Assembly: GCA_028285525.1 (NCBI GenBank)
Contig: JANQOZ010000106.1
Span: forward strand, 18,822 to 82,821
DNA from: Lysobacterales bacterium
GTDB lineage: Bacteria; Pseudomonadota; Gammaproteobacteria; Xanthomonadales; SZUA-38
Direction: 5' to 3'
DNA: 64,000 nucleotides
The notes under the pieces were generated by a model. That model saw only the letters and a list, made by a program, of their open reading frames with translations. It ran no database searches and was not told the DNA's origin. Below, one piece after another: positions 1 through 61,784 of this stretch. Numbering within the stretch: the first letter of the stretch is position 1; each line of letters starts with the position of its first letter. Position numbers and translations under genes: made by a program.

Positions 1-1647
1 GCCGATGCCATCAACCTGACGACGGAGGGCGACGGCGCAGCCTCCGAAGGCGACTTTGATATCAGCTCCAGCATCACCATTGAAGGCGCCGGCATCGGCC
101 GGAGTATCATCACTGAGGGACCGGCCGCTTCCCTGCTCCGGGCTTTCGACGTGCATGAGGGCGGCAGCCTGACGCTGCAGGACCTGACCGTGACTGGCTT
201 CGGCACAAATAGTTTCATTTTTGGCGGCGGCGCTGTCCGGATGGATGCCGACGCCACGGCCTCTCTGACCCTTCGCCGGGTTCATCTGCTGGACAACCAG
301 GCGGCGTTCGGCGCCGCAATCTTCGCCGACGCGAACGACGACCCGGCCCCCTCGCCCCTGGTGCAGATTTTCGACTCGGTGATCGGAGCCAACGTCTCCA
401 GCACCACCTCGCCGAGTACCTGCACGGGCGGCGGCCTGTTTCTGCGGGCACCCGCGATAATCGAAACCACCGATATCATCGACAACAGCGGGACACGCGG
501 TGGGGGCATCTGCGTTCGGGATACCCGTGTTGAGCTGCGAACCGTGACCCTGTCCGGCAACACCTATGACGCCAGCCAGTCCGGCGGCGCACTTTATGCC
601 TCCGAAGCGGATGTCGAGATCAGCGGTTCCAGAATCATCAACAATGGGGCCACCACCGGGGTCGGCGGCGCAATCAGGGCAGCCGGGGGGACGCTGACGG
701 TCTCCAACACCCGGATCAGCAACAACGAATCGCGCGGCGCGGCGCTGTTCCTGGAAGAAGGGATCACCGGCGATTTTTCCGGCTGCACGATCGCAGACAA
801 CGCCTCTTTCCCCTTGGCCGCTTTCGGTGCGCTGCTCAATTTTGATCGTACCGACGTCACGGCAAACATCGGCCCGGGATTTGAACTTTTCGATACCTTT
901 GTAACCGGTGTTGGGCTCACCATGAGCGGGTTCACGCGCCGCCTCGGCGGCGCCATCTTCGGCGACAACAGCACGCTGGATCTCGAGCAGTGCGTGTTCC
1001 GGGACAATCGGGCCCAGAACGTCGACGGTGAGTTTTCCGGCGTGGGCGGCGCGATCTACCTGCAGGACGGCACCCTGCAATTTCGGGCGTGCACCCTGGC
1101 AGATAACCAGGCCGACGCTGAGGGCGGCGCCATCGCCCTCTCCGGGGGACTCCTGCTGGCGCTGGAGAACACCACGTTCAGCGACAATGCGGCTGTCGGC
1201 GTCAGCGCCATCCAGGCGGCAAACGTCATGACGGTGGTCGACTTCGACCACGTCACGATTACCTCAACCGATCCTGGCCCAAGCGTCCAGACGCTGAATG
1301 CTGATTCGCGCTTTCACAACAGCGCCATCGACGGCGGCTGCGAGCTCTTTTTCGGCGGGGGTTTGCCCATCTCGCTGGGTGGTAACGTGGTCACCGACGC
1401 GTCCTGCCAGGTGGATCCGATGAGTGATACGCTGGTGCTGGACCTTGGGCTGCAGCCGTTAGGTGACTTCGGCGGGCCGACGCCGGTGCATCTCCCCGCA
1501 CCCATCAGCCCCGTGCTTGGGGTAGCTTCGGACTGTCCGCTGTCGGTCGACCAGCGGGGTGAACCCCGCACTAGCCCGTGTGACGCCGGTGCAGTGGAAG
1601 TGCAGCCGACGGACGACGCCGTGTTTGCCGATGGTTTTGAGCTGTAG
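1..1647 (+). CDS. Secreted right-handed beta-helix repeat protein (Pmp / choice-of-anchor-Q-like); 5' end lies outside the window
   Basis: Frame 1 is open from base 1 (ADAINLTTEGDGAASEGDFDISSSITIEGAG...); the ORF track only starts it at 151. Repeated beta-helix rungs are present: GGGAVRM, GGGLFL, GGGICV, GGALYA, GGAIRA, GGAIFG, GGAIYL, GGAIAL. The protein ends ...VFADGFEL-stop. Confidence 0.75.
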   Translation, partial: ADAINLTTEGDGAASEGDFDISSSITIEGAGIGRSIITEGPAASLLRAFDVHEGGSLTLQDLTVTGFGTNSFIFGGGAVRMDADATASLTLRRVHLLDNQAAFGAAIFADANDDPAPSPLVQIFDSVIGANVSSTTSPSTCTGGGLFLRAPAIIETTDIIDNSGTRGGGICVRDTRVELRTVTLSGNTYDASQSGGALYASEADVEISGSRIINNGATTGVGGAIRAAGGTLTVSNTRISNNESRGAALFLEEGITGDFSGCTIADNASFPLAAFGALLNFDRTDVTANIGPGFELFDTFVTGVGLTMSGFTRRLGGAIFGDNSTLDLEQCVFRDNRAQNVDGEFSGVGGAIYLQDGTLQFRACTLADNQADAEGGAIALSGGLLLALENTTFSDNAAVGVSAIQAANVMTVVDFDHVTITSTDPGPSVQTLNADSRFHNSAIDGGCELFFGGGLPISLGGNVVTDASCQVDPMSDTLVLDLGLQPLGDFGGPTPVHLPAPISPVLGVASDCPLSVDQRGEPRTSPCDAGAVEVQPTDDAVFADGFEL

Positions 1648-3087: not shown

Positions 3088-5379
3088 ATGAATGGACACA
3101 CGCAATCGCCGCCTTGGATCCCCGCGGTCGTCATGCTTTACGCGCTCGCGATCCCCTTGCTGCCGCTCGATCCAGCCGCAGCCCAGGGGCTGATCGACCT
3201 CACCGGCGCAAGCGGGGCCAACCGCGTACAGTTCAGCAATACCAGCACCAGCGCCGACCGTCTGGGACAGTCCGTTAGCGGCACCGGCGACATCAACGGC
3301 GACGGTTTTGATGACGTTATCTTCGGAGCTCCGCAGGCTGACGGCGGGTTGGGTGAGGTTTACGTCCTCTTCGGCAGCGCGACGCCTGTCGCTGCGCTCG
3401 CCACGGCGGATCTCGACGGCAGCAACGGCTTTCGAATTTCCAACGGAACCCTGGAGTTCAGTCTGGAGCTGGGCCTTGCGGTGACCGGTGGCGCCGACCT
3501 GACCGGCGACGGTCGCGACGATCTGGCCTTCTCGACCGACAACAACACCAACGGCAGTGTCTACGTGCTGCCCGGCCAGGTGGGCGCCTTTCCGGCGAGC
3601 GTTACGCTCGGGCCGACGCTGCCGACCGGGATTCGACAGCTGATCACACCTTTTACGAACGAGAACATCAGCGCCCTCGCCATTGCCGGAGACGTCAATA
3701 ACAACAACGTCGGTGATCTCCTGATCGGCAGCCAGGACGCTAGCGGTGGGAACAATACAGGCCAGGGCTATCTCGCTTTTGGCCCGGTGGCCAATGGTCT
3801 CAATCTCGGTTCGCTGAACGGGCTCAACGGCTTTGAAATTCCCGGGTTCCGGTTCGGTGATCGCTTAGGGAGCACCGTTGCTGCCGCCGGCAACTTCAAC
3901 AACGACAATTTCGACGATCTGATCCTCGGTGCACCCGGCGACGCCACTACCTCCGAGGACGCCGCTTATCTCCTCTATGGGTTCAGTGACAGCACCGTGA
4001 GCTCCCGCGGCCTGAACTTCTCGTTTGGCGACGAGGGCGGCTTTGCGATGCGGGCCAACGCCGCTGACGAGGCGAATGCCGGCGTCGTGGGCACGGCCGG
4101 TGACCTGAACGGCGATGGCTTTGACGATCTATTTATCGGTTCACCGGGCCCCACAAACGCCGGGGTCTACGTTGTTTTTGGGCAGGCGGCCGACTACCCG
4201 CCGGCTCTGGACCTGGCCAGCCTCGACGGCGGCAATGGTTTTCGCATCAACGATGTCGCCATCCTGGGGCAGCTGGGAGAAGCTATCAGCGCCATCGGGG
4301 ACATCAATGGTGATGGGTTCGACGATCTCGCGATCGGAGATCCGAGTCGCGGCCCCGGTGACCTGACTGTCCCGGGGGTTGTTTATGTAGTCTTCGGCGC
4401 CGCCACGTTCCCTGCGGTTCTCGAATTGACAGACCTTGCCGGGAGCAACGGATTTGTCCTCGAGGGGCCCGCCGGGAACCAGCGACTCGGCGCCGCGCTG
4501 GCTGGCGCTGGAGATTTCAACGACGACGGGCTGGATGATCTGGTGATCGGCGCGCCGCAGGACGGCGGCGGCCGGGGCTTTGTGCTGCTAGGCAATTCAG
4601 CACCGCAAAGCCTCGAGCCCGCCCTGGCCCTGGCGCCCACGCTCGAGGATTCCACGTCGGACGAGATCTTGGTTGGTGATCTGCTGGGCCCGGTCTATGT
4701 CGACACAGAGCCGCTGGCCGGCGTTGCGGTGATCGACAATCCGTTCAGTCCGTTCCAGGGCAGCTGGCAGTTCAACACCGGCGGCCCGTGGTTTCCGTTG
4801 GCCACCGGCCAAAGCGAAGGCAGCGCAACGGTTGTCCTGGCAGCATCTCGCATTCGCTACGTTCCGGCACCGAATTTTGCCGGCGGCCCGGTCCGCCTGC
4901 AGGTGCGGTTGTGGGACGGCAACTGGGGCATAGGTGGTGATAATCGGGACATCCGCGATGCGATCAATGCACTGGGCGGCTTCGGCGATGTTGTATCGCT
5001 CGAGATCAGCGTGACGCCCGTTAACGACCGCCCCATGCTGCTGATCTCCGATCCGCCGCCAGTGGTTGCCGGCGAAGCCCCTCAGGTCCTGCCGGGCTTC
5101 GCGTCGTTTAACCCGGGCGGCGGCGAGACGGACCAGACGGCAACCTACCGCTTTGTGTCGTTGACCAATCCGCAGCTTTTTCTCGATCTACCCAGCCTCA
5201 ACAGCAACGGTGACCTGACCTATACCCCCAATGCAGGCAGCGGCGGCACGTCCGAGGTGCAGTTTGTGGTGGAAGACTCCGGCGGCACGGCCAACGGCGG
5301 CCAAAACACCTCACAACCGGTCACCGTTACGTTCACCATTTTGGATACGCAGCTGTTTGCCGACGGATTCGAGGACTGA
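3088..5379 (+). CDS. Secreted FG-GAP (integrin-alpha-like) seven-repeat propeller protein with a C-terminal cadherin/VCBS-like region
   Basis: AGGAGG lies upstream of the ATG, followed by a signal-peptide-like N-terminus. There are seven copies of the GD[IFV]N.DG.DD[LV].[IF]G.P calcium-binding FG-GAP motif. VTPVNDRPML is typical of cadherin-like Ig domains. The protein ends LFADGFED-stop. Confidence 0.85.
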   Translation: MNGHTQSPPWIPAVVMLYALAIPLLPLDPAAAQGLIDLTGASGANRVQFSNTSTSADRLGQSVSGTGDINGDGFDDVIFGAPQADGGLGEVYVLFGSATPVAALATADLDGSNGFRISNGTLEFSLELGLAVTGGADLTGDGRDDLAFSTDNNTNGSVYVLPGQVGAFPASVTLGPTLPTGIRQLITPFTNENISALAIAGDVNNNNVGDLLIGSQDASGGNNTGQGYLAFGPVANGLNLGSLNGLNGFEIPGFRFGDRLGSTVAAAGNFNNDNFDDLILGAPGDATTSEDAAYLLYGFSDSTVSSRGLNFSFGDEGGFAMRANAADEANAGVVGTAGDLNGDGFDDLFIGSPGPTNAGVYVVFGQAADYPPALDLASLDGGNGFRINDVAILGQLGEAISAIGDINGDGFDDLAIGDPSRGPGDLTVPGVVYVVFGAATFPAVLELTDLAGSNGFVLEGPAGNQRLGAALAGAGDFNDDGLDDLVIGAPQDGGGRGFVLLGNSAPQSLEPALALAPTLEDSTSDEILVGDLLGPVYVDTEPLAGVAVIDNPFSPFQGSWQFNTGGPWFPLATGQSEGSATVVLAASRIRYVPAPNFAGGPVRLQVRLWDGNWGIGGDNRDIRDAINALGGFGDVVSLEISVTPVNDRPMLLISDPPPVVAGEAPQVLPGFASFNPGGGETDQTATYRFVSLTNPQLFLDLPSLNSNGDLTYTPNAGSGGTSEVQFVVEDSGGTANGGQNTSQPVTVTFTILDTQLFADGFED

Positions 5380-7970: not shown

Positions 7971-9182
7971 TCAGGGCAACTCGAAGCCGTCGCTGAACAC
8001 CGGATCTGGCAGCGGCGCCTGACAGCTGCTCGCACTCTCAAACCGGAGCACGCTGCTGCCCTGCAGGAGATACAGCTCGCCGTCTTCGTCTTCGCCGAAG
8101 CCGTAGATGCTGCCCGGTAGATTGTCGAACTCGCTGGCGCTCCAATTGCCCGGGCTGTCCTCGGTGCCGAAAAATACCCGCGCGGTGCAGAAGTCGCCGT
8201 ACACGTACGTGCCCTGTAGTCCCTCGATGCAGCCCCGGTAGCGGTAGCCGCCGGTGATTGAGCAGTTGCCGGCGACGTGGGGATACGTGAGGATCGGTTC
8301 GACGAAGCTGCCCGAGCAGCCGCCCGGCCCCGGGATGTCGCCCTCGCGGCAGTTCCAGCCATAGTTGGCGCCGCCTGGGTCACCGGCTGACTGAAAGGAG
8401 ACCTCTTCGCGGGAGCCGGCGCCGACGTCCGCCAGAAACAGGTCACCGGTGTCGCGGTCGAAGCTGAAGCGGTAAGGGTTGCGCAGACCGCTGGCCCAGA
8501 TTTCGTCTGGCTCTGACGTGCCGACGTTCGGATTGCCCGGTGGAATGGTGTAGGGCTCGGTGCAGCTGCCGGTGTCGCACGGATCGATCCGTAGCACCTT
8601 TCCCTGCAGATCCTGTTCGTCCTGGGACGTCGACGAGGTGGCGCCACCGTCGCCGAACGCAATGTAGAGGAATCCATCCGGACCGAAGTGCAGGTCACCA
8701 CCGTTGTGGTTGCCGGCGGCCTGCGCCTGCGTGAGGATCACAACCCGGCTCGAGAGATCGGCAGCATCCGGGTCGGAGGGTGACACGCTGAACCGCTCGA
8801 TCACCGATTCAAGCGGGTTCGGGCCGGAGCCGTCCCGGGTGTAATTGACGTAGAAGAAGCCATTGCTGGCGAAGTTCGGGTGAAACGCCAGCCCAAGCAG
8901 GCCGCCCTCAAAAAACGTGTCGACGTCGCTGGTGATATCGAGGAATGGGGAGCTGGCAAGCCCGGCGTCTTCCCGATAAATCCGGATAAGCCCATTGCGC
9001 TCGACGATGAACAGGCGCCCGGACCCGTCGCCGGCATGGCGCAGCGCGAGCGGTGTGGAAACGCTGATGTTGAGTGAGTTGAGCGTGAGATCCGCCGGTG
9101 GTGTACCCGCGTATCCCGCAGCGTGCACCAGGATCATTAACAGGCCTAAGAACGCAGTCCCGAACGTCAAAGAAAAGCGCAT
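7971..9182 (-). CDS. Secreted PQQ-dependent sugar (glucose/sorbosone) dehydrogenase-like beta-propeller
   Basis: Signal peptide is present. Family motifs: GLLGLAFHPNF, FFYVNYT, HNGGDLHFGPDGFLYIAFGDGG, GKVLRIDP, IWASGLRNPYRFSFDRDTGDLFLADVG. The protein ends VFSDGFELP-stop. Confidence 0.85.
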   Translation of the reverse strand: MRFSLTFGTAFLGLLMILVHAAGYAGTPPADLTLNSLNISVSTPLALRHAGDGSGRLFIVERNGLIRIYREDAGLASSPFLDITSDVDTFFEGGLLGLAFHPNFASNGFFYVNYTRDGSGPNPLESVIERFSVSPSDPDAADLSSRVVILTQAQAAGNHNGGDLHFGPDGFLYIAFGDGGATSSTSQDEQDLQGKVLRIDPCDTGSCTEPYTIPPGNPNVGTSEPDEIWASGLRNPYRFSFDRDTGDLFLADVGAGSREEVSFQSAGDPGGANYGWNCREGDIPGPGGCSGSFVEPILTYPHVAGNCSITGGYRYRGCIEGLQGTYVYGDFCTARVFFGTEDSPGNWSASEFDNLPGSIYGFGEDEDGELYLLQGSSVLRFESASSCQAPLPDPVFSDGFELP

Positions 9183-16511: not shown

Positions 16512-16940
16512 ATGGCCACCCTAACCTGCAATATCGTGAGCGCCCAGGAAGAGCTTTACTCGGGCGTGGCCAAAATGGTGGTGGCCTCCGGTGAAATGGG
16601 TGAGCTGGGCATCATGCCCCGGCACACCCCGCTGATCACCCGCCTCAAGCCGGGGCAGGTCCGCGTCGTGCAGGAAGACGACGAGGAAGAGTTCCTCTAT
16701 ATCTCCGGCGGCCTGATGGAAGTTCAGCCGCACGTCGTGACCATCCTGGCCGACACGGCGATCCGCGCCGGCGACCTCGACGAAGCCGCGGCCCTTGCCG
16801 CCAAAGAGGAAGCCGAGCGGACGCTGGCTGACAAAGAAGTCGGCATGGACTACGCCAAGGCGCAGGCTGAGCTGGCCGAAGCTGTTGCCCAGCTTGCAGC
16901 GCTCGAGCGTCTTCGCAAGGCGGTCAAGCGCTCCCGCTAA
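16512..16940 (+). CDS. atpC: F0F1 ATP synthase subunit epsilon
   Basis: 142 aa with the N-terminal beta-sandwich ([11 protein letters not shown]...[14 protein letters not shown]) and a C-terminal helical hairpin. It is the last gene of the operon. Confidence 0.97.
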
Positions 16941-16944
16941 ACGT

Positions 16945-16997
16945 GGGGTCAGAGTAAAGGGACAGAGTAAAATACTCTGTCCCTTTACTCTGACCCC
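16945..16997. terminator. 25-bp perfect stem / 3-nt loop hairpin between convergent atpC and the SDR-like gene (probable bidirectional transcription stop or REP-like element)
   Basis: ggggtcagagtaaagggacagagta (16945-16969), loop aaa, then tactctgtccctttactctgacccc (16973-16997), an exact reverse complement. Each arm contains cagagtaaa twice. There is no U-tract on either strand. Confidence 0.55.
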
Positions 16998-16998
16998 G

Positions 16999-17826
16999 TC
17001 AATCTTGATCACGTCTGTTTTCCCAAGCATCGCTGAATTGTTTGATGGCTGACGTCGGAAGTCGCGTTCCGTGGCTGGTGGCGTCGCGTCGGGCGCTAAT
17101 CTCCAGCATGGCCTGACCAATCTGCCTTGCTTTGATCGCCACGCCCACGGGTGCAAACACGCCATATAAGATCTGCTGCCCCAAGTGAGCTTCCGCCTCC
17201 GTTGGACCGATATAGTCTGGGCGATAAAACACGGCGGTGATCGCGGTGCCCTCCGTCAGTCCTTCAATCGTTTTCTCCGCGCGAATCTTTTCCCGCACCC
17301 ACATGGTGTCCGAATTCTCGGAGATATCGCTGGAGCTGATGTAGTGGAAACTGACGCGCGGCCTCTCGGTAACCTCAAGCCAGTGGCGAACAAACTGCGC
17401 CGGAAAATCCACGTGAATCTTGCCGTACGTCTCCTCATCGACACCCAGCGAACTGGTGCCGAGCGCCCAGAACACGGCTTCGACGTCCGCCAGCTGGTTG
17501 ATGACAGTGCTGTAGTCGAGATAGTCCAGGTGCTGGGTCATAACAACCTTGCCAGCAGCAACGCCCGCTTCGATGCGAGGGGACGGCCGACGCGTAACGA
17601 CATGGATCTGCCTAACGCCAGGATCCGCCAGAGCCGCTTCCAGGATGCCGTCTCCGGCCGTGCCCGTTGCCCCAAAGATCGCGATGGTTTCGTGGCCCGC
17701 CGGTGGGCCGTCAAATGCCGGAGCTTCGCGAGTATCGGTGGCCACCAGATACACCCCGGTCAGGTAGAACAACACCAGCCCACCAATAAGCACCAGAAAT
17801 ATTGATCGCAAACGAGGTCGTTTCAT
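16999..17826 (-). CDS. Membrane-anchored NAD(P)H-binding atypical SDR / NmrA-like protein
   Basis: The ATG at 17826 gives MKRPRLRSIFLVLIGGLVLFY (TM anchor), followed by the Rossmann motif IAIFGATGTAGDGILEAAL. The track ORF starts 38 codons further upstream. Confidence 0.75.
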   Translation of the reverse strand: MKRPRLRSIFLVLIGGLVLFYLTGVYLVATDTREAPAFDGPPAGHETIAIFGATGTAGDGILEAALADPGVRQIHVVTRRPSPRIEAGVAAGKVVMTQHLDYLDYSTVINQLADVEAVFWALGTSSLGVDEETYGKIHVDFPAQFVRHWLEVTERPRVSFHYISSSDISENSDTMWVREKIRAEKTIEGLTEGTAITAVFYRPDYIGPTEAEAHLGQQILYGVFAPVGVAIKARQIGQAMLEISARRDATSHGTRLPTSAIKQFSDAWENRRDQD

Positions 17827-18011
17827 CAATTTGCCTATAGTATTCCCGCCAGGTCCCGCGAGACGCTCTGGGTTAACCACTATGGCTAAAAAGAAACGCC
17901 AAGAAACGTGGCCAAAGTAGTAGTCGGTGCTCCTAAACACCTGGGGCCTGCACCGTGAAATTTGCGCCAGCGACTTCTAAACTGAGCGTTTTCCAGGCAA
18001 GTAGCGTCGCC

Positions 18012-19277: not shown

Positions 19278-19298
19278 GCGCCATTACCAGAGCAACGC

Positions 19299-20189: not shown

Positions 20190-20586
20190 GTGCTCCCCGA
20201 CCATGCCGCTTACGAGTTTCGATGAATCCCACAGATCTTGTGCCCTAACTGCGAATTTTTGCGTAGTGGGTGACATCAGATCAGGGAACAGCAAGGCCGG
20301 CTTTCCAGTTATGCACTGATGTGTGCGGTAAGCGGTGATGGAACAAATACAGTGGCTTCTGCATCACGAATCGCGACAAGAATCTGTTCATCGGTAAATC
20401 AGCGTTTCGTCATTCGGTTTTCCTTGTTCAGTGGAGAGCCAAAATTGGTATTAGTCCACTCAGCTGAGAGCACTCCACGATCATTCAGATCATAGGAGCG
20501 GGGACGCTGAGAGATTCTTGTCCAGAACTGCACTTGTGAGATAGAGCCTGGGCAAACGTCACAAGTACTAACCTCTCGGCGAGGCG

Positions 20587-20613: not shown

Positions 20614-20633
20614 CGTGGCTGAATGGTAGACCA

Positions 20634-24130: not shown

Positions 24131-24134
24131 AGCT

Positions 24135-43088: not shown

Positions 43089-44015
43089 TCAAGGCGTTTC
43101 GAGTGAATCAGAAAATATGCGCGGGTGCTCGATCATCGTTCCAAAAAAAACGTCGAACTGGTTCTGCACCTCGCAGCTGGAAAATCTGAGTCCCTGGGTG
43201 AGTCGAGCGGCAGCCTGATAGCCGCCACCGGCTCGCGAAGCCGCCGCGCAGGTGCTGGAAATCGCCAGCGGGTCGCTGGGGAGCCTCAAACCGCCCGGGC
43301 GTGCTCCGGAAGTGTTGACGCCGACCAAGGCGTGCAGCATGTAGCGGCGCTCAGTCGCGGTGCCAAACTGCTCAGGCGAAAGGGCGAGCAATACCGCATC
43401 AAAATCGGCGCCTGCGGCCTCGGCAGCAGTGGTTGAGGTGACCGGTGAATCGGATAGGACACCCATACGAAAGGTGCACTCGATTCGATCGTCGGTCAGG
43501 ATGATGATCTGTTTGAAGGCATTCGGACGAAGCCATGCGGACCAACCCGCTGGCTGCTGAAAGAACTCGTCAACGATGGCGCCGTCGAACGTCTTGAACA
43601 TATTGCACCAGGTATCGAAACTCAGATTTCTCACGCTGTAGTGCTTGAAGTTTGGCGTGTTGGCTGGCTCCGGAGGATTGAAGGCGCAGGCGCCAAAGGG
43701 GATGGCGCCAAGCGGATTCTCGAAACACAGCTCTGCCGTATTGGTCCCAAAGTCACCGATCACAATCACCTGCGGATCCATGCCGGCGTCCTCGAGAGGC
43801 TGAACCAGACTCGGGTACAGGTTCTGCTCCAGCGCCGCGTTTTCTGTGCCCATGCTGACGGAATTGTCGACCGCAATGATGATGTCCCAGGGTGCGCTCA
43901 GGACGTCGGGGGAGACGTCACCGGCGGATGGCGAGCTGAAATATGTAAGAAAACTCATTACCCAAAGGCTCCGCAAGAATCCGCTGTGCATAACTGACTT
44001 CCCGTTTAACTTCAC
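43089..44015 (-). CDS. Hypothetical exported protein, possibly vWA-like
   Basis: 308 aa. IIAVDNSVSMG resembles a vWA MIDAS DxSxS motif. The protein ends IFSDSLETP-stop. The signal peptide is weak. Confidence 0.5.
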   Translation of the reverse strand: MKLNGKSVMHSGFLRSLWVMSFLTYFSSPSAGDVSPDVLSAPWDIIIAVDNSVSMGTENAALEQNLYPSLVQPLEDAGMDPQVIVIGDFGTNTAELCFENPLGAIPFGACAFNPPEPANTPNFKHYSVRNLSFDTWCNMFKTFDGAIVDEFFQQPAGWSAWLRPNAFKQIIILTDDRIECTFRMGVLSDSPVTSTTAAEAAGADFDAVLLALSPEQFGTATERRYMLHALVGVNTSGARPGGLRLPSDPLAISSTCAAASRAGGGYQAAARLTQGLRFSSCEVQNQFDVFFGTMIEHPRIFSDSLETP

Positions 44016-46946: not shown

Positions 46947-48914
46947 TCAATTTGGCGTCTCAAACGAATCTCGGAAGAGGTCGTTCGACGTTGCCCTGAC
47001 CGACATGTAGGCGTTGTACTCCGCCATGAACGTGGCGTCCGTGGCGATGTTGCGACCGCCGATGTAGGTCAGCTGGCCGGTGCCGCTGACGGTACCGTCC
47101 ACGTCGATCATCAGGCTGTCTTCCAGGTCAACGCCTTCGCGACCCATGTACCAGAATCCGGGGGTGTCGATGAGCGTGATATTGGACGCCCGGAGATAGG
47201 GAGAGGTGTCCAGAACATCCTTCCACATCGTAAACGCGCCGGGTGCAAAGCCGACAAAGGTCACGTTATCCACCCGCGGGTTGTCCCCGCCGCGTCGTCC
47301 GCCCTGAAAATGCATGCCGCCGCCGAGGTGTCGACGATTCCCGATAATTTGATTCTCGCCGCCGATGAGATTGTCGGTCTGCTGAATGGCGACGATATTC
47401 TCAATGTTGGATTGGTGGTTGAAAATCGCCATGGAGCTGTCGGCGATGATTGAGTCTCGAAAGGTGTGGTTGCGATTTTCCAGCCACGCGCCGGCCAGGG
47501 AATTCTTGTAGGCGGTGAACTGCTCGAAGACCACGTTCTTACCGAGACCCGCGTAGTGGGTCACCATCAGCCCGCTGGTGCGGGTCTTCGGACCATAGGT
47601 GGGAATGCCGCCACCGGGCAGCACGCGATAGTGGGAGTGAGCGACGTTGCCGCGAAAAATGTTCGGCGTCTCGTTGTACACAATAAACTGCTGATCCCGA
47701 TGGCCGATAACCTGCGAATCGAAGAAAAACCCGATGCCCTGGGCCCCGCCCGCTGCGTGGTTGTCCTCGATGATGTTGTGATAGCTACGCATCCAGAACC
47801 CTGACGGGCGATGCTCCGCCTGGTCCGACTCAGTGTGGTCATCGCGCGGAAACGAGAAGTCTTCGTTGGGTCGCCGCTTGTACAACACCGCCAGGTTTCT
47901 GAGATAGGCGTTGCCCACCTCGGTGCCTGTCTCGGACGGCACGTAGGCATGACCCCACACGTCGTAAACAACGTTGTCGCTCACCAGCACGTTGTTCACC
48001 TCGTGGGTGACCACACCGCGCTGAAAACTGTTGTGGATGCTGGTGTCGCGGATGTAGCTGCCGCTCGCATCCAGCCCGGGATCTGAGGGGCCATGCCAGT
48101 GGGCTGGATAGCGGCCCTGTTTACGGAGCTGGCCGCCGCGCGTCATCTCGACTCCCGAGATCTGTACCTGGCTGTGAGGCATAAACATGGCGTGGAAGCC
48201 AAAGTGATCTGCCTCGGAGGACTCGGGCGCCTGGATCCGAACGTTCCGGGTCAACAGGCCGACCTCAGCTCGCACGTCGAGGTCGCGACCGACAATCGTT
48301 TTGACATGGCCGAGGTGCGGATAGGCGAGCGCCGGCGTAACCGACACGGTATTCCCATCGATCGCCGTAATCGACAGCTTCTCAGATTCTTCAGCATGGA
48401 AACCGCTGGCGGCAATCACGATTTCTTCCCCGATCGACCAGCCTGGCGCAGTTGCCAGCGTCAGCTCAGTGTCACCCGGATTCACGTCGGCCGCGAGCTG
48501 CGTCCAGCTCGTTTTGGCCGCGCTGGCGCCGTGCAGGGATAGCGAGCCGCCGCCCATGACCCCAAGCACCCGGTTGCCCATGGCCCCGCTACCCAGGTCG
48601 GGTTCGGTCAGCTCGATCACCGCGTTGGCGGTGAAGGGTTGAGTGGCGGTGCCCACCTCCAGAGTGCCGCCTGTGTGAATCATGATGCGCGCCACCTCCA
48701 GGCGTAAGTCCTGATCCGCAAAGGTCAGCGTCCCCATGACGTCGAGTGAACCCAGCGGTGGCGGCGAGACGTCGAGCGTGATGACCTGGCCAGCTGGAAT
48801 CGTGACGTTCTCACCAATCCCCGGAACGCCACCCGGCCAGCTGGCCGGGTCCGACCAGTTTCCGGCGTTAGCAGCCACCGCAAGAAAAAGCAGGGAAAGC
48901 GCTAGAAGCTTCAT
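46947..48914 (-). CDS. Secreted G8-domain / right-handed beta-helix protein
   Basis: The ATG at 48914 gives the signal peptide MKLLALSLLFLAVAANAG. The G8 domain signature is NWSDPASWPGGVPGIGENVTIPAGQVITLDV...LGSLDVMGTLTF...IHTGGTLEVGT. Beta-helix repeats follow. The protein ends LFRDSFETPN-stop. Confidence 0.8.
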   Translation of the reverse strand: MKLLALSLLFLAVAANAGNWSDPASWPGGVPGIGENVTIPAGQVITLDVSPPPLGSLDVMGTLTFADQDLRLEVARIMIHTGGTLEVGTATQPFTANAVIELTEPDLGSGAMGNRVLGVMGGGSLSLHGASAAKTSWTQLAADVNPGDTELTLATAPGWSIGEEIVIAASGFHAEESEKLSITAIDGNTVSVTPALAYPHLGHVKTIVGRDLDVRAEVGLLTRNVRIQAPESSEADHFGFHAMFMPHSQVQISGVEMTRGGQLRKQGRYPAHWHGPSDPGLDASGSYIRDTSIHNSFQRGVVTHEVNNVLVSDNVVYDVWGHAYVPSETGTEVGNAYLRNLAVLYKRRPNEDFSFPRDDHTESDQAEHRPSGFWMRSYHNIIEDNHAAGGAQGIGFFFDSQVIGHRDQQFIVYNETPNIFRGNVAHSHYRVLPGGGIPTYGPKTRTSGLMVTHYAGLGKNVVFEQFTAYKNSLAGAWLENRNHTFRDSIIADSSMAIFNHQSNIENIVAIQQTDNLIGGENQIIGNRRHLGGGMHFQGGRRGGDNPRVDNVTFVGFAPGAFTMWKDVLDTSPYLRASNITLIDTPGFWYMGREGVDLEDSLMIDVDGTVSGTGQLTYIGGRNIATDATFMAEYNAYMSVRATSNDLFRDSFETPN

Positions 48915-49195
48915 AGACCATTCCTTTCTCGATCGGCAGCGGGAAGCGGTGCCGGACTGGGATTCACTATCGAAGCAACGTTTGACAGTCGTATAGAACA
49001 GAATCAACGTGCGCCGCGCAGACGCGCAGTGAATTGTCCAATCTGTGACCCACTTCCGAAGAAAAGCGGTTTGGGAGAATTGGAAATGCATCGACAGGCC
49101 GGTCATCCGGCGTGCCTCTCGGAGCCACCCCTTTAGTTGCCGAAAAATCGGCCGTTACTTTAGGTGTCGTCTAACGGGAGTGGGCAAAGGAACGC

Positions 49196-50400: not shown

Positions 50401-51180
50401 CTACTCCATGTCGACGACGATCGTGACGCCTTCGGGTACCGCAAAGAGCTCTGAGGGCAGAGGCTCATCGAAGGTATAGGTCGCCTCGAGCGTCATTCCG
50501 TCGCCAATGTTAGCCTCGAGCCTTACGGGCTGGTTGGTATCCACGTCAGCCCACAGGGTGACACGCGTCGCGTCAATCTCCAGGCGGTAGCCGCGGCAGG
50601 GCAGGCCGTCGATGGTTCGAGTCTCCTCGAGCGGCTCGGCCATTCCTTGAAAGTCTCTTAGTTCGGCAAACCAAGCCAGCGACTCGTTACCCACCGCGGC
50701 CGCATCAACTGCCGAGTCCCAGCCCGTGTTGGCCGGAATGGCGATGCGCATCGCTTGATTACCCGGCAGCAGCGTGGTCATCGTGGCCGATTCCGGGTCG
50801 ACGATGTGGGTCACCGGGCCCGTTTCGATGCGGGCAAAACCGCTCGCTTCCGCCATGACGTCGATTTCCGTAACGATGGCGCCTCCGGTCTCGAATGTCA
50901 TATGCATGTGGACGGTTTCGAAGTTTCGAAACCACTCCTGGACCGACGCAAACGCCACGCCGTTGCCTGGTACCAGGAGCGGAAACAGCCCAACGCAAGC
51001 GACGAGCACGAGGGCGGCGCTAGCCCAACGCAGGGGGCCTGCGAAACGGGAGGCCGGGCGGGGTGAGGGCAGTTGCTCCTGAAATCGTCGCGCCGCCTGC
51101 TCAACGGCGGCCTGCGGCGTGTCAGATCGCGCAGCTTCGACGCAGGTGTCCAGCAGGTTGTTGGTCATTTCCGTAGTCAT
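50401..51180 (-). CDS. Anti-sigma factor-like single-pass protein with a LolA-like/DUF4367-like periplasmic domain
   Basis: There is an ATGA overlap with the upstream ECF sigma gene. The layout is a ~50-aa cytoplasmic N-terminus, one TM helix (ALVLVACVGLFPLLV) and a ~190-aa beta-rich periplasmic domain. Confidence 0.6.
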   Translation of the reverse strand: MTTEMTNNLLDTCVEAARSDTPQAAVEQAARRFQEQLPSPRPASRFAGPLRWASAALVLVACVGLFPLLVPGNGVAFASVQEWFRNFETVHMHMTFETGGAIVTEIDVMAEASGFARIETGPVTHIVDPESATMTTLLPGNQAMRIAIPANTGWDSAVDAAAVGNESLAWFAELRDFQGMAEPLEETRTIDGLPCRGYRLEIDATRVTLWADVDTNQPVRLEANIGDGMTLEATYTFDEPLPSELFAVPEGVTIVVDME

Positions 51181-51737
51181 TGTGTTTCTCCAGTGATTTG
51201 AGGCGCGGCATCCAGGAGACGGTTCAGGTCCTCAGACAGGCGTTTGCGGAGCCGGTGCAGGGCAACACCGACGGCGTTTGCGCTCATTCCTAGCTCACGA
51301 CCGATTTCTGCTTGATCAAGGTCCGCAAAACACTGCAGCGAAAACAGCTTGGCGTCGCGTTCAGAAAGCGCCGCGACGGCGTTACGAAGCGCCTCGGCAC
51401 GCTGGCGTTGGACCAGCTGTTCGTCGGGTTCTTCGGGCTGCGTTAGATCGACCGGAAGCTGCGACGGATCCCGGCGCCTGCGCAGCCGATCAATCGCCCG
51501 ATTCACCGCCATCTTCTTGAGCAATGCCGGCCAGCTTCGAACTTCCGCTGGACGTTTCCTTAAGAGCTTCTCTGCGATGTCCTGGGCAACATCTTCGGCT
51601 TCGGCCACGTCGCCAAGCACCCTGGCCGCTGCGCTGATCATCAGGCCCGCATGGGCACGAAGCGCCTCGATGAGTTCCTCCTCATCGACGCGGCTGGGAA
51701 AGAAGCGCGCCATCAGGTCCCGCGTTCGGGTGGTCAT
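51177..51737 (-). CDS. ECF sigma factor (third in the window)
   Basis: The ATG at 51737 has GAGGA 7 nt upstream; the track's TTG at 51767 was rejected. Region 2 is EDVAQDIAEKLL...AVNRAIDRLRRR and region 4 is DLDQAEIGRELGMSANAVGVALHRLRKRL. Confidence 0.9.
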   Translation of the reverse strand: MTTRTRDLMARFFPSRVDEEELIEALRAHAGLMISAAARVLGDVAEAEDVAQDIAEKLLRKRPAEVRSWPALLKKMAVNRAIDRLRRRRDPSQLPVDLTQPEEPDEQLVQRQRAEALRNAVAALSERDAKLFSLQCFADLDQAEIGRELGMSANAVGVALHRLRKRLSEDLNRLLDAAPQITGETQ

Positions 51738-51806
51738 TTCATCGTCCTCTCGGCTGCCGTTCGACAAGGAGACGTGGGTCTGCGGACTTTCTTACACACG
51801 CAAGAC

Positions 51807-51866: not shown

Positions 51867-53978
51867 TCAGGCGGAATCGATCTCTAGCAGGTAGCGGTTT
51901 TGGATGTCGCCGACGCCAAACACGCGCAGCGTGTATTCGCCGCCCTCGCCAGGGGGAACCAGATAATTGACCGATTCGTTATTGGTTGTGGAGTCGCCTC
52001 GAGCGACCACAGTGCCAGAGGGGTCGAGCAGCTCAAAGTCAATGTTGCCGTCGGCATGATCAAAAGTTGCCGTGAGAAACACGACCTCATTTTCCTCCGC
52101 CGTAAACCGAAAGAAATCGTCATTGCCACCGCAGCTTACAAAGCTGTCGCGCTCGAACGGCGGTAGGATGACTGTCGGCGCCGCCATGGAGTCGTTGGGT
52201 TCCCAGCCGTCGTCAAGCGGGCAGAGCTCTTCGAGGCCGTCGGAGAATAGTTTGCTGGTTGCGCCCACCTGGCTGAAAAATACCCGGCCGAAGAATTCGT
52301 TCTCGTTGGCGTTGGGTGATTCCAGGATCCGCAGCGTGTCGAAGACAATTGGCGTCCATATTCCGACGAAGTTGTCTACGGACGGGTTCGGCGTTCGAAA
52401 CGAGAGCGTCCCGACTTCCCGGCCGAGTAGAAACATCACGGCGTCAAAGGTGGAAGGGCTGGATCCGCCGGATGCGTCGTCAAACTCAATACCCAGCCCT
52501 CGAACCGATTGGCCAATTGCCTGGATATTCAGGTTCTCGGCGTCGTTGATCGCCAATTCGATGTTGTTGTCGCCGGGAAAGTCCGCCGGCCAATTGCTGA
52601 AATTGAGCGACGAGGGTGCCACCGCCGAGAGCGTGACACCGCCGCTGACAAAAGGCTCGCCCGGGCTGCTGTTGTTGGGATAGGGGTCTGATACAACAAA
52701 CCCCGCCGGTGCGCCTTCAAACACCTCCCGACGGGTGATCAGCAGCGGCGCCTCGGCGTCAAACTCATAGGCCCCGATGTCCGGGCCGCCGCCAATTCGT
52801 CGGGTCGCGCCGTCCGCGTCCAGCCGGAAGGAGCCATCACCGCTGGCACCCCTATCGATCAGGAATGACTCTTTGCGCAGCCGGAAATCGGCACCGGCAA
52901 TGTCAACAAACTGAGGATCAAGCGCCATCACGCCGTCAGCCGCCGAGCCGTCCAGCCCCACATCCGGCTGACCGTTGTTGAAGCTGTTGTTGTTCAATAC
53001 CAGCAGGCTCGAGGCAGCACCGCCAAGGTTGAGCCGATACCCCGACTGGCGCGCTTCGGAAACCGTGTTGTTGATGATCCTGAGCGAGATGACGGCGCCA
53101 GCGTCCACCACAAAAACGTCAATGCCGTCACCCATGCGTTGGATGTCGTGCAGCGTGTTGTGTTGAAAGTCAGCGTTGACCTCCGCCGCCTCTTCGACGC
53201 GAAGCTGAATCCCACTGGCGTTGCCGCAGGAACATCCGGCGACCGAGTAAACCACGTTGCCGTAGGCCCGCAGGTCGTGTGTCCCGGTGCCGATAATTCG
53301 GTAGCTCAGACCGGAGTTGCTCTCTTCCGGCAGGCTGGTGGTGACAATGTTGTCGAGAAAGTCGACAGTCGTTGCAGCGCCCTCGCTCTGCACCCGGATG
53401 CCTTGCCCGGTGCTCGCAATATGATTGCGTTCGATGACCGTCGTGGTCGGAACCTCCACCCGCAAATCGATGGCGCCGGAATTATTGTTGTCCAGCTGGA
53501 ACGTCATCCGGTTGTTTCTGAGCAGCAGCTCATGGCCCGTGCCAAACCGCACCACGCCGGTCAGCCGAGCGTTGTCGAACGTCAGATCTTCGACGATGAC
53601 CCGCTGGTTGTCACCGCTTATGCCCGTTTGCCCCAGACCACCAAAATCGATACCGCGAGTGTTTTCGCTGCCGCCGATCACGGGCGTAAAGCCGGGAGCG
53701 GGACGCAGCCTCAGGGTGCGTCCGATGAACAGCTGTTCGTCGATCGGCGTGTTGGTCGCAATGTCGATGGTGTCACCCTCGGCGGCTGCGGAGATGCAGC
53801 CCTGGAGCGTCGTGTCGCAGGGGGCCGGGCCTGGGTAAATGAGCTGGGCTGCCCGCACCGATCCGGCGATTGACAGGACCGCAAGCGCAAACAGCGCTGG
53901 AAGGAGGGAGGTGGTGGCCTGCACAAGGAGATTCGTTCTTCTGCCCCAAATCAAGGGCGCGATAGTCGGCTTGGTCAT
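51867..53978 (-). CDS. Secreted right-handed beta-helix protein with a C-terminal bacterial pre-peptidase (PPC) domain
   Basis: The ATG at 53978 has GAGGA upstream, followed by a signal peptide (...LLPALFALAVLSIAGSVRAAQ). Beta-helix repeats follow. The last ~115 aa (WEPNDSMAAP...GGNDDFFRFTAEENEVVFLTATFDHADGNIDFELLDPSG...GEYTLRVFG) match the PPC-domain pattern. LFSDGLEE sits immediately before it. Confidence 0.8.
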   Translation of the reverse strand: MTKPTIAPLIWGRRTNLLVQATTSLLPALFALAVLSIAGSVRAAQLIYPGPAPCDTTLQGCISAAAEGDTIDIATNTPIDEQLFIGRTLRLRPAPGFTPVIGGSENTRGIDFGGLGQTGISGDNQRVIVEDLTFDNARLTGVVRFGTGHELLLRNNRMTFQLDNNNSGAIDLRVEVPTTTVIERNHIASTGQGIRVQSEGAATTVDFLDNIVTTSLPEESNSGLSYRIIGTGTHDLRAYGNVVYSVAGCSCGNASGIQLRVEEAAEVNADFQHNTLHDIQRMGDGIDVFVVDAGAVISLRIINNTVSEARQSGYRLNLGGAASSLLVLNNNSFNNGQPDVGLDGSAADGVMALDPQFVDIAGADFRLRKESFLIDRGASGDGSFRLDADGATRRIGGGPDIGAYEFDAEAPLLITRREVFEGAPAGFVVSDPYPNNSSPGEPFVSGGVTLSAVAPSSLNFSNWPADFPGDNNIELAINDAENLNIQAIGQSVRGLGIEFDDASGGSSPSTFDAVMFLLGREVGTLSFRTPNPSVDNFVGIWTPIVFDTLRILESPNANENEFFGRVFFSQVGATSKLFSDGLEELCPLDDGWEPNDSMAAPTVILPPFERDSFVSCGGNDDFFRFTAEENEVVFLTATFDHADGNIDFELLDPSGTVVARGDSTTNNESVNYLVPPGEGGEYTLRVFGVGDIQNRYLLEIDSA

Positions 53979-54061
53979 ACGGTTCCTCGTTGATCCACCA
54001 AGTCTCACCCTAGCGGCGATTAGCCTTTTTGACTACAGGGTGCATGAAGCTGGTGTGGCCA

Positions 54062-58925: not shown

Positions 58926-61784
58926 CTAGCCTTCAAACCCATTCCTGAACAGGAGCCGGCCTGCCGGGCGTGGCAGTGGGCGCAGCGACCCGGCGGGTGC
59001 GGAGGCGGGAACGTTGGGGTCACGCATGCCGGACCGGTTGCCGTCAAACGAAAAGAGCTCCCAGCCGGTTGACTGATCCTCTGGTGGTGGCAGCCCCTCC
59101 AAAACAGCGGGCGGCAGGACGGACAGGTCCTCAGCTTCCTGCGTACCTGCAAAATATAGCCGCGTGCCCGCAGCAATGGTGAGCTGTTGGACAGATCCGT
59201 CAGTAAATAGTGGCGGCGCCGTCGCGAGTTCGTTGCGAAAGATCGAAAAATGATTGTCTTCCTCCGCCATCAGCCACAGCTCGCTCTGGTAGCTTTGGGA
59301 TGAGGGAAACCGCTGCCTCACATAGGCAAAGAAGCCGTTGAAGCTCTGAAACTCGCCGAAGAGGTTATCGGAGATGTCGTCAGACCAGGGAACCATGACG
59401 GCCTGAGTGCCCGCCGGCGTTCCGTCCGTACGCCAGAAGGTGGCGCTGCGGTTACTGGTGTTGTTGACGGCGAAGTAGACAAAACCGTTGTGCAGCGCCG
59501 AGCGATTGAGGCTGTCGTTGCCGATGCTGTGCGGCAGCATAAACAGCCGGTGAGTACCGGCAGGCGTGCCGTCGCTGACGTAGACCCCACCCGCGTCGTT
59601 GTCATACATCAGCGCCAGGCCGCCCAGGCCGCGGTTGTTGAGCAGTCGCAGCCCATTGGGCGGCGCATCGCTGCCCAGCCAGCTGCTTACGGGTGTGGCC
59701 AGGGTTTCATCGTTGGCAACAAAGTAAACGTCTCGCGCGGCCGGCGCGTTGGCGTCGATGAACAGCCCGTTTCGCATCGGTGCGGAACCCCACACCACGC
59801 CGGAAGCGGGAAGCTCGATGTTCTGGGTGCCGCCTGGGTAGCCATCGCTACGCCAGACAAAACCATTGGGGGCACCGCCAACATCCGGCAGGGCAACAAA
59901 ATACAGCTGCTCGTCGACGCTGTTGAGTATTTGATAACCCGCAGCCGGGATACCGTTATAGGTCGCTCTGGCGAAAACGCGGGTTTGCGCCGGCGTGCCG
60001 TCGCTTTGCCACAGCGCCAGGTCGGTCAGGCCATCACCATCGGGTGGCCGGGCCCGGAAGATCTGCAGGTCACCCAGCTGAAACGGGTCACTTTGCATGA
60101 GCGGCTCAAGATTGGTCTCCGTCAGCGCCCCGGTTTTGGCATCCAGACGATACCACTGGGTTTCGATGCCCTTGGCGTGCGCCGATTTATTGCCGACAAA
60201 AAGGATCAGAAACGCGTCGTCGACCGCAAAAGCAGCGTTGACGCTGCGGTCATTGCGGCAGAGAAAGGGGGTCTCGCCGTTGATGTTGACAGGTGATGGC
60301 GGGCCAACAGGGCGGTGGAGAAAATACGTTGTCAGGCGCTGGCTTCCATTGACCAGCCCGTTGTAGGCGCAGCTCAAGGCCACGTCTCCCGAGGTTGCCA
60401 CAATCCGGCTACCGCTGTCTTCAGGCCCCTCGACAGCCTCACCCACCGACTCAGCCTCCACCTCGCTGAGCGGAACCAGCAGCTCAAAAAGCTCGCTGCC
60501 TTCTACCAGGGACAAGGATGACTGGCGCAGGCGAAAGTAGTTGAGCACGTCCAGCCGACCCGCGCTGTCTGTTCCCATCCGGGCATACGTTCGGGAATAG
60601 AGATTGACAAAAAAACTGGTTCCAAACTCGGTCGTCATCGGGACATCGATGACCACACTCTCCGGAAAGGCCTCCAGGGGCTGCGGCTGACCGCCGGAAA
60701 TCTGCACCACTCTCTCGGTTCGCTGCAGTTCGATGAAATCGGATTCAGTGGGGTCTCGGAATCCCCGGTAGTAGTGGTCGTCATCAGGGGCTGGTGTTTC
60801 CAGGCGCAGAAGGTCCAGCGAGCGATAAAAGGTGGCCGGCGATGCTCCGGCCCACTCGGCGCCAAACAGGTCGTCTTCCAGCGTCGGCACCCCGTCACTG
60901 GTGAACAGCAGGGATTCGGCCTGGCCCCAGCTGCAGTCCAGGACGTTTGGATCAAAAGCGCAGCTAAAAGAGCTCAGCGAATCCGGCGGGTGGGCCCAGG
61001 AGACATAGTTGGCGTATTTTAGACTGAACAGAACCGGGACCGAGGTAGGAACCTCTGCGCCGTCAGGAAGATCACCGCGAAGCACCAGCTGGTATGGCAG
61101 CGTGACCAGCCCTTCGTGCTCCAGGCTGTCGACGTTGACGTAGTCAGCCGGCGCATTGCGATCCGGCAGCGTCCCGATCGGGTCGAGCACGCTGTTGCGT
61201 CCGACGCTCACCCTCACGCTGTTCAGTAAACCCGTGCCCGACCCACCTCGATTTCTGAACTTGTCCGCAAAACTGTACCCCTCGGTGTGCCAGCCTCGAG
61301 GCGTCAAATCAGGTGCCCAGAAGTTGTTCTCGGCGGTAGCCGGGAACGGCTCATAGGGTGAAAAAAAGCCTGGACCCGTGAAGTCGTCATCGAACCGGGT
61401 TCCAATGCATTGGAGGCCGAAATATCCCGGCGACAGATTAAAAAACGCGCCCTGACACCACTCTTCGGGCGTGATATCAAAAGAAAGCAGGGGTTCCTGG
61501 GTAGGCAGGGTTGTGTTGTAGATCTCCGGTCCGCCGGGATTGTAGAACACGCCGGGGTTCAGATCGCCTTCTTCAATTCGCTGTACGTATAGCCCCTCGT
61601 CACCAAAAGAGGGGTAGAAATCCAGCGCTTCAAAGTCAGACCGCAGTTCATATTTAGCGCCGCGCAGAAAGGCCGTGCTCGGCCAGGTCCCCAGGATCTG
61701 CGCAGGAGCACCACCTTGCGCCCAGGCGCCTGAAACCATGAGCAGCCCCAGGGCTGCCAAAGAGTGAATAGTCCGAACAGCCAT
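58926..61784 (-). CDS. Secreted ELWxxDGT-repeat beta-propeller-like protein
   Basis: Signal peptide MAVRTIHSLAALGLLMVSGAWAQG. Repeats: LALWQSDGTPAQT, FVWRSDGYPGGT, VYVSDGTPAGT, TFWRTDGTPAGT and ELWLMAE. The protein ends LFRNGFEG-stop. Confidence 0.8.
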   Translation of the reverse strand: MAVRTIHSLAALGLLMVSGAWAQGGAPAQILGTWPSTAFLRGAKYELRSDFEALDFYPSFGDEGLYVQRIEEGDLNPGVFYNPGGPEIYNTTLPTQEPLLSFDITPEEWCQGAFFNLSPGYFGLQCIGTRFDDDFTGPGFFSPYEPFPATAENNFWAPDLTPRGWHTEGYSFADKFRNRGGSGTGLLNSVRVSVGRNSVLDPIGTLPDRNAPADYVNVDSLEHEGLVTLPYQLVLRGDLPDGAEVPTSVPVLFSLKYANYVSWAHPPDSLSSFSCAFDPNVLDCSWGQAESLLFTSDGVPTLEDDLFGAEWAGASPATFYRSLDLLRLETPAPDDDHYYRGFRDPTESDFIELQRTERVVQISGGQPQPLEAFPESVVIDVPMTTEFGTSFFVNLYSRTYARMGTDSAGRLDVLNYFRLRQSSLSLVEGSELFELLVPLSEVEAESVGEAVEGPEDSGSRIVATSGDVALSCAYNGLVNGSQRLTTYFLHRPVGPPSPVNINGETPFLCRNDRSVNAAFAVDDAFLILFVGNKSAHAKGIETQWYRLDAKTGALTETNLEPLMQSDPFQLGDLQIFRARPPDGDGLTDLALWQSDGTPAQTRVFARATYNGIPAAGYQILNSVDEQLYFVALPDVGGAPNGFVWRSDGYPGGTQNIELPASGVVWGSAPMRNGLFIDANAPAARDVYFVANDETLATPVSSWLGSDAPPNGLRLLNNRGLGGLALMYDNDAGGVYVSDGTPAGTHRLFMLPHSIGNDSLNRSALHNGFVYFAVNNTSNRSATFWRTDGTPAGTQAVMVPWSDDISDNLFGEFQSFNGFFAYVRQRFPSSQSYQSELWLMAEEDNHFSIFRNELATAPPLFTDGSVQQLTIAAGTRLYFAGTQEAEDLSVLPPAVLEGLPPPEDQSTGWELFSFDGNRSGMRDPNVPASAPAGSLRPLPRPAGRLLFRNGFEG

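Follow-up and report, generated by a model that had tools for sequence, protein, structure and literature searches.

Six proteins encoded in a 64-kb stretch of DNA from a Lysobacterales bacterium (contig JANQOZ010000106.1; the whole 64,000 nucleotides analyzed, referred to as the window) end in the same short peptide: a hydrophobic residue, the core F-x-[DN]-[GS]-[FL]-E, and up to three further residues before the stop codon. This C-terminal tag is a genuine module that recurs on unrelated proteins and is under selection. Judged from the homologues described below, the heptad of the window is the short form of a 19-residue module, ΦFxDGFESG[DN]TSAWSxTVP-COOH (Φ, hydrophobic), the wider extent of which had gone unnoticed in an earlier analysis of the bare DNA letters (referred to as the sequence-only reading). 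The long form was common in metagenome-assembled genomes (MAGs) of Acidobacteriota (named sources: Acidobacteriota, Thermoanaerobaculia, and Vicinamibacterales MAGs), and short forms were found in Xanthomonadales/Lysobacterales-like Gammaproteobacteria, including the source of the window.

When a slightly relaxed version of the pattern [LIVM]F.[DN][GS][FL]E was run on the six frames of the window, seven matches were obtained, six of which ended 1-3 residues before a stop (Table 1); the translations and coordinates of these six C-termini were exactly those given by the sequence-only reading. The seventh, LFSDGLEE, was internal. The composition of the 44 open reading frames (ORFs) of the window predicted 0.027 matches at any position and 0.00025 at a distance of 0-3 residues from a stop, versus 7 and 6 observed, and residue shuffles gave means of 0.02 anywhere and 0.001 at the C-terminus. 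C-terminal enrichment, which had been proposed as a check on the tag, was thereby borne out within the window. As a background, the motif occurred 4 times in 1.29 Mb (80 unrelated genome loci), and in a control DNA scan of viral contigs its positions were evenly distributed relative to stops. The residues after the core E varied among the six tags (L, D, LP, TP, TPN, and G), and three of the tails (FELP, LETP, and FETPN) retained a Pro-containing end.

Since the six tags differed in their synonymous codons and the flanking DNA was without similarity, conservation is at the protein level. No remnant of the long form was found downstream of the stops of the window in any frame, and nothing was conserved downstream of the stops at metagenome loci. 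These results already refute an artefact, whether by chance, from a DNA repeat or a terminator that overlaps the ends of genes, from wrongly called stops, or from reading through into a domain farther downstream, and leave it a negligible probability: the terminal copies far exceed the chance expectation; the codons and flanks, together with an unremarkable terminator scan, rule out a DNA repeat or terminator; the unrelated sequences 3' of the stops in all frames dispose of read-through, a frameshift, or a pseudogenised long form; and the tag was kept in independently assembled genomes and metagenomes.

Architectures of the carriers (P1 to P7 in Table 1) were assigned with Pfam and NCBIfam. 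P1 contained Beta_helix and Chlam_PMP matches and a choice_anch_Q domain (residues 431-485 of 498) directly N-terminal to the tag; P2, six FG-GAP repeats and Big_9; P3, the GSDH domain, the propeller of soluble pyrroloquinoline quinone (PQQ) sugar dehydrogenases; P5, G8 and a CEMIP beta-helix; and P6, the ELWxxDGT repeat. P4 gave a Pfam VWA match at E=0.055, and its Foldseek matches were weak and exclusively alpha/beta (legumain-like and vWA/integrin betaI). The earlier statement that the tag is shared by unrelated folds therefore held in that the six architectures were distinct, while the 'vWA-like' label given to P4 was weakly supported and stays tentative. P7, with the internal copy, consisted of a beta-helix, a choice-of-anchor Q domain, a DUF5123-like region, and a C-terminal PPC domain.

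Signal peptides were judged by eye on the N-termini. The five complete carriers and P7 had signal-peptide-like N-termini, and the truncated P1 had a full-length orthologue in a MAG (GCA_039033415.1) of 613 aa, which starts with MFCRSFFVAFALLLSLAAQAATVEV, has a signal peptide, and ends in VFADGFEL. The sequence-only reading had noted signal peptides on the complete carriers and proposed a check of the co-occurrence; in the window, the tag was restricted to signal-peptide proteins. Roughly 10 proteins there looked like signal-peptide proteins, and about 5-6 of them (about half) had the tag, compared with 0 of about 33 cytoplasmic or membrane proteins. The orthologue of P2 in a related MAG had the C-terminus LFADSFED, and the nearest relatives of P3 were from Xanthomonadales/Lysobacterales MAGs. 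The mechanical ORF of P5 included a 64-residue 5' extension without a signal peptide, and the true start is likely the internal MKLLALSLLFLAVAANAG, near 48914. The start of P4 is probably MSFLTYF..., near 43958, matching the database gene call P0409.

The two forms of the module became apparent in the families of P3 and P4. Among the best 120 homologues of P3 (52-73% identity), a loose regular expression detected a tag-like motif near the C-terminus in 116; about 20 had the short form (FxDGFE plus 0-3 residues) and the majority had the long form, ...IFADGFESGDTSAWSxTVP and stop. F396, D398, G399, F400, and E401 were each at least 90% conserved over the 120 sequences, and intermediates between the short and long forms (FETP, FETVVP, and FESVSS) were also found. 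The tails of P4 homologues were RLFSDQFEDR, RIFADRLE, ALFIDRLEMPSVK, and ILFANGLEDSPVVR, with the long form, PLFVDGFESAGTSGWSSTVP, in one homologue; the occurrence of short and long tails in this family validated the degenerate copy in the window (tag 4). Short and long forms were thus interchanged at the same site in two unrelated families.

A synthetic query of three concatenated long-form tags (57 aa) was searched against 5.8 billion proteins, position being no criterion. The best 120 matches, none longer than 100 aa, were small proteins or pieces of proteins and came from many families (LVIVD, FG-GAP, P-domain, and choice-of-anchor-Q-like), and in 98 of these 120 the protein ended exactly 18 residues past the first F of the module. 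Carriers from metagenomes comprised LVIVD, FG-GAP, proprotein-convertase P-domain, RCC1-like, and GSDH proteins. Metagenome contigs were also scanned with TTCNNNGACGGCTTCGAG, the GC-rich codon version of a degenerate DNA pattern, which also matches ProA, PurH, and other unrelated proteins; clear spikes were obtained 0-2 and exactly 12 residues before the stop. The long form stops exactly 12 residues beyond the core E. The long module was also observed as the C-terminal tail PIFSDGFEDGTTSEWSRTTP on a viral contig from IMG/VR (L120, 1496-1855). In L220, a metagenome protein (ORF ending near 4950) had a partly duplicated tail, ...PIFVDGFESGDTSAWSSTTQVSPLSGRSPRGSAAALGRREGGDTSAWSATVQ, in which the second half, GDTSAWSxTV, was repeated.

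The position of the module relative to the domain preceding it was compared in two families. When 80 GSDH relatives, all from named genomes, were compared at their C-termini, the propeller was followed by a type A domain of the type IX secretion system (T9SS) in Bacteroidota (TIGR04183; 34-52 bits, above cutoff), a GC-type dockerin in Phycisphaerae (NF041540; 51 bits), dockerin-like repeats in Zixibacteria, nothing in Chloroflexota, and the tag in Acidobacteriota and in Lysobacterales/Xanthomonadales (IFEDGFEG, IIFVAGFETPDDR, and RLFGAGFESRDCR, each ending at the stop in the latter). A GSDH profile search of genome contigs mostly retrieved relatives that were distant and untagged. The choice-of-anchor-Q and tag region of P1, used in an exhaustive HMMER search, yielded relatives of about 600 aa that ended in the tag (VFADSFEL, VFSDGFE, IFNNGFEF, LFLDGFEW, LFSDGFESI, or the long form), and other relatives had PEP-CTERM-like tails of a transmembrane segment and Arg, T9SS-like tails, or dockerin-like repeats. 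At the level of sequence comparison, both families showed that the tag occupies the slot to which lineage-specific sorting or anchoring modules attach. In many giant choice-of-anchor-Q proteins (e.g. P0246, P0247, P0256, P0262, and P0274), a different C-terminal domain recurred, about 50 aa long and ending in ...(Q/R)RFYRV(R/S)SP and stop; it seems to be one more C-terminal module specific to a lineage.

No Pfam or NCBIfam model matched over the tag, with either the tails or the full carriers, even at E<=10, and nothing relevant was found in the searchable literature by sequence string or by concept. The tag appears undescribed in these libraries and literature, in line with the sequence-only reading, which did not recognise it as a named sorting signal. 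An attribute list for small sorting domains includes C-terminal location, multiplicity, at least three invariant residues, and a signal peptide on the carrier (doi 10.1101/2023.06.07.544157). The tag shared all four: it lies near the C-terminus (0-3 residues after the core in the short form and exactly 12 in the long form), has multiple copies per genome region on unrelated carriers with signal peptides by eye (six in 64 kb), and has at least three invariant residues (F, D/N, G/S, F/L, and E).

Like the tripartite signals (LPXTG/sortase, PEP-CTERM/exosortase, GlyGly-CTERM/rhombosortase, MYXO-CTERM/myxosortase, and IPTL-CTERM), the tag is short, C-terminal, and multi-copy, has several invariant residues, and is found on unrelated signal-peptide proteins, behind choice-of-anchor domains. 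Unlike these signals, it is occasionally N-terminal or internal and has neither a hydrophobic transmembrane segment (0-3 residues or 12 polar residues follow the core) nor a terminal Arg/Lys cluster (tails end in E, EL, ED, ELP, ETP, ETPN, EG, or ...TVP). The tag therefore has no means of staying in the inner membrane until a transpeptidase, intramembrane or membrane-bound, can act on it, and the exclusion of PEP-CTERM, GlyGly-CTERM, IPTL-CTERM, and LPXTG-type signals by the sequence-only reading was confirmed. Its other exclusions (T9SS, type I secretion, and the outer-membrane beta-signal) also stood.

Similar to the C-terminal domain (CTD) of T9SS type A (TIGR04183, Por_Secre_tail), the tag has no transmembrane helix, is carried by Sec-exported proteins of many folds, and takes the same position in GSDH proteins. 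However, the CTD is a folded beta-sandwich of about 70-100 residues, whereas the tag has 7-20 residues and was not matched by the models that detected the Bacteroidota GSDH tails. Xanthomonadales-like and Acidobacteriota hosts are not known to use T9SS. Dockerins (GC-type NF041540; type I) provide a second comparison, dockerin-type modules holding the slot of the tag in Phycisphaerae and Zixibacteria GSDH relatives. They anchor proteins non-covalently via a partner protein and may be located at either terminus, a freedom that matches the occasional N-terminal position of the tag. On the other hand, a dockerin has about 60-70 residues with a duplicated, Ca-binding EF-hand, whereas the tag is far shorter, without a repeat or known cohesin-like partner; neither NF041540 nor PF00404 matched the tails, and NF041540 did match the Phycisphaerae GSDH tail. 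The beta-signal of outer-membrane proteins and the C-terminal signals of the type I secretion system have the extreme C-terminus in common with the tag. The former consists of a terminal aromatic residue (usually F) on an outer-membrane beta-barrel, whereas the tag ends in E, P, or a variable residue (L, D, P, P, N, and G in the window) on soluble propellers or beta-helices. Type I substrates have no Sec signal peptide and usually contain repeats-in-toxin (RTX) sequences, whereas the carriers have signal-peptide-like N-termini and gave no RTX or HemolysinCabind matches.

The conformation of the tag was predicted with AlphaFold2 in two carriers. In the model of P3 (from a 120-sequence alignment), the mean predicted local distance difference test (pLDDT) score was 92, compared with 52 for residues 391-400 and below 50 for residues 401-403; the tag of P3 scored 45-52. 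The model of P4 had a mean pLDDT of 81 and a predicted template modelling score of 0.84, and residues 280-289 were below 50. Overall, the tag had a pLDDT of about 36-52 versus 81-92 for the proteins as a whole, and it was not predicted to pack on the carrier in either case. No chains with the module were found in the PDB, where sequence matches were at chance level.

We favour, with a confidence slightly under an even chance, the reading that the tag is a terminal peptide which, once Sec has exported the protein, is recognised in trans for sorting or retention. In this mechanism, the carriers, which are mostly beta-rich and extracytoplasmic, would be exported by Sec, and the tag would be left exposed and flexible once the catalytic or adhesive domains fold. 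A partner encoded away from the cargo would then recognise it in trans; the alternating aromatic/acidic pattern and the D/N-G turn of the tag speculatively suggest binding by the addition of a beta-strand or hairpin. Recognition would decide where the protein ends up, by taking it across the outer membrane, by retaining it at the cell surface or in the matrix, or by both. The role of the tag would be akin to that of the T9SS CTD, dockerins, or PEP-CTERM elsewhere, with no inner-membrane-anchored intermediate, and the tag would act like a very small dockerin or T9SS tag. We infer all three elements: recognition in trans, the sorting or retention role, and the strand-addition mode. The sequence-only reading had proposed a recognition tag for secretion, surface attachment, or processing; this interpretation was reasonable and is partly supported, gaining indirect support from a tag that is real, modular, and located in the anchor slot of GSDH and choice-of-anchor-Q relatives, while the strict dependence on the C-terminus was weakened.

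Several points weigh against recognition in trans. Because the tag lacks both a transmembrane helix and a basic cluster, every characterized sortase-like mechanism is excluded and the mechanism would lack precedent. The low pLDDT is expected for any short appended peptide and is no proof of a partner. No candidate partner or sorting enzyme was found near the cargo genes in the window, and the density of tags varied, two further tag-bearing genomes showing only one tag in 21 kb. In a minority of proteins (P0124, P0128, and P0132), the long module was located directly behind the signal peptide, and in P0142, P0217, L320, L158, and L024 it opened a jelly-roll-like domain. Hence, the module is able to serve as an ordinary strand of a structure, and a free C-terminus cannot be strictly needed for recognition; these N-terminal and internal copies weaken a purely C-terminus-dependent mechanism. 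The description 'extreme C-terminal tag' applied to six of the seven copies in the window, and not to the module as a whole. Removal of the PPC domain after secretion, if it takes place, would make the copy in P7 C-terminal.

The jelly-roll-like copies bear on the origin of the module. The pattern F-x-D-G-F-E-x-G-x-x-x-x-W is common to the tag and to the first strand of CBM4/9 (carbohydrate-binding module families 4 and 9) and LamG jelly rolls ('(N/D)GxFExG...W'), and the module resembles this strand and may derive from it. The phage protein of L158, starting with MGRIFVDGFEHGNLSFW, had a weak CBM_4_9 match over residues 5-46 (E=0.044), and the GSDH protein of L024 (Thermoanaerobaculia) contained IFADGFESGDLSSW followed by 189 more residues, ending in ...LVIDQVSLTR as in a jelly roll. 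Unlike these domains (about 130-200 residues), the tag comprises the first 7-19 residues and then the protein end, with a fixed terminal ...TVP-COOH in the long form, and no CBM_4_9 match was obtained on isolated tag tails. L158 (4940-5938) is a viral contig from IMG/VR, and its jelly-roll-like protein, about 330 aa long, has the module as the N-terminal strand; in another IMG/VR viral contig, L121 (1906-2280), the module was right behind a signal-peptide-like segment.

A structural element acting in cis without an external partner (an edge-strand cap, a folding or solubility aid, or a reused first strand or beta1-beta2 hairpin of a CBM4/9- or LamG-like jelly roll) would account for the resemblance of the long form to an N-terminal jelly-roll strand, for the weak match of the phage protein, and for the continuation of the L024 protein. 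It would also agree with the beta-rich nature of all carriers and with the jelly-roll-like last strand (ΦΦDDΦ) right before the tag in several tagged fragments. We nevertheless consider it unlikely, since the tag was unpacked in the models of both families tried and the one peptide recurs behind folds as unrelated as propellers, beta-helices, Ig-like domains, and an alpha/beta domain. In addition, the seven residues of the short form are too small for specific capping, and Chloroflexota GSDH relatives fold without any tail.

The full domain that still follows the motif in some relatives (L024, and P7 with its PPC domain), together with a short form that looks further truncated from the long one through intermediates such as FETP, FETVVP, and FESVSS, could also point to an evolutionary stub, namely, what is left, without function, of a C-terminal domain of the jelly-roll, CBM, or PPC type that was lost. 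This is very improbable: the level of 90% or higher at which F, D, G, F, and E are retained in homologues of 52-73% identity is unexpected in decay, the identical end VP-COOH was present in about 100 unrelated proteins, the tag recurred on six unrelated proteins within 64 kb, and no long-form remnant or conserved sequence followed the stops in the window or elsewhere.

The motif of P7, exactly at the boundary before the PPC domain, is also compatible with a proteolysis signal: either a site recognised by a protease of the periplasm or the cell exterior, with the tag serving as a quality-control degron on cargo that was not secreted, or a boundary for the removal of a C-terminal pro-domain. PPC domains (PF04151) are typically removed after secretion, C-terminal peptides are classic ligands of proteases and PDZ domains, and [DN][GS] dipeptides, by inference here, would be prone to succinimide formation. 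However, the 0-3 or 12 residues past the core leave nothing substantial to remove in most carriers, the residues after the core of the short form vary, unlike in C-terminal PDZ or Tsp ligands, and the cell would pay heavily for a degron carried by that many abundant exported proteins. We regard proteolysis as distinctly improbable.

Returning to recognition in trans, a broader proposal may be made, appreciably below an even chance in our estimate: the tag would represent a new class of sorting or docking signal in diderms, free of a transmembrane segment and 7-19 residues in length, with a dedicated receptor or translocon common to Acidobacteriota and Xanthomonadales-like Gammaproteobacteria, possibly acting by beta-strand complementation, as a counterpart of T9SS CTDs, dockerins, and PEP-CTERM. 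Work on each of LPXTG, PEP-CTERM, GlyGly-CTERM, MYXO-CTERM, and the T9SS CTD uncovered a dedicated sorting machine, and these signals allow prediction of the surface proteome. In Acidobacteriota and Xanthomonadales/Lysobacterales-like MAGs, which are environmentally dominant and poorly studied, a large set of exported proteins of adhesin-like and enzyme-like types bears the present tag. If the tag does serve for sorting or docking, it would delimit the surface or secreted proteome in these lineages, point to a new receptor or translocon, and provide a portable tag of 7-19 residues for display or secretion engineering. Even if its role is structural, a hidden Markov model for the tag would better annotate thousands of 'hypothetical' metagenomic proteins.

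Table 1. Tag copies and other features of the window (positions are those of the 64,000-nucleotide stretch).
Feature	Position	Strand	Location or description
Tag 1, VFADGFEL and stop	1621-1644	+	C-terminus of P1, 5'-truncated beta-helix/choice-of-anchor-Q protein (coding sequence 1-1647)
Tag 2, LFADGFED and stop	5353-5376	+	C-terminus of P2, FG-GAP/Big_9 protein (coding sequence 3088-5379)
Tag 3, VFSDGFELP and stop	7974-8000	-	C-terminus of P3, GSDH-family PQQ sugar dehydrogenase (coding sequence 7971-9182)
Tag 4, IFSDSLETP and stop (degenerate copy)	43092-43118	-	C-terminus of P4, 289 aa, alpha/beta, without Pfam family (coding sequence about 43089-43958)
Tag 5, LFRDSFETPN and stop	46950-46979	-	C-terminus of P5, G8 and CEMIP beta-helix protein (mechanical ORF 46947-49106)
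Tag 6, LFRNGFEG and stop	58929-58952	-	C-terminus of P6, ELWxxDGT-repeat protein (coding sequence 58926-61784)
Internal copy, LFSDGLE(E)	52230-52250	-	P7 (coding sequence 51867-54008), directly before the C-terminal PPC domain
Animal-type haem peroxidase	22303-23685		
CHAT/TPR protein	24096-27347		1083 aa
NAD_binding_8 flavoprotein	29683-31905		
AAA_16 ATPase	31918-34989		
FeeM-like acyltransferase and haem-oxygenase-like pair	36146-37529		
Vanadium-chloroperoxidase-like protein	37709-39544		

The genes adjoining the tagged cargo were of the EAL/HDOD, AsnC, AraC, GGDEF, and extracytoplasmic function (ECF) sigma types, a resistance-nodulation-division pump, and the atp operon. A dedicated machine beside the cargo was rejected on this basis, the neighbours being regulators, the pump, and the atp operon. 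Directly downstream of P7, on the same strand (-), an ECF sigma factor and a probable anti-sigma gene were located (51177-51767 and 50401-51180). Between the tagged genes, a block of unusual genes (20634-41685) contained, in addition to the six features listed in Table 1, two ECF-sigma-like genes, a Trans_reg_C regulator, and a Sel1 protein; this block may be an oxidative or halogenating island of specialised metabolism or signalling. In a 4.0-Mb contig of gammaproteobacterial type with a short-form GSDH (L325; region 16656-18225 and 18300-21185, both on the - strand), three tandem genes with phage-tail 'Collar' domains were located beside a cadherin/Big_9 giant (>2000 aa) and DUF6916 genes.

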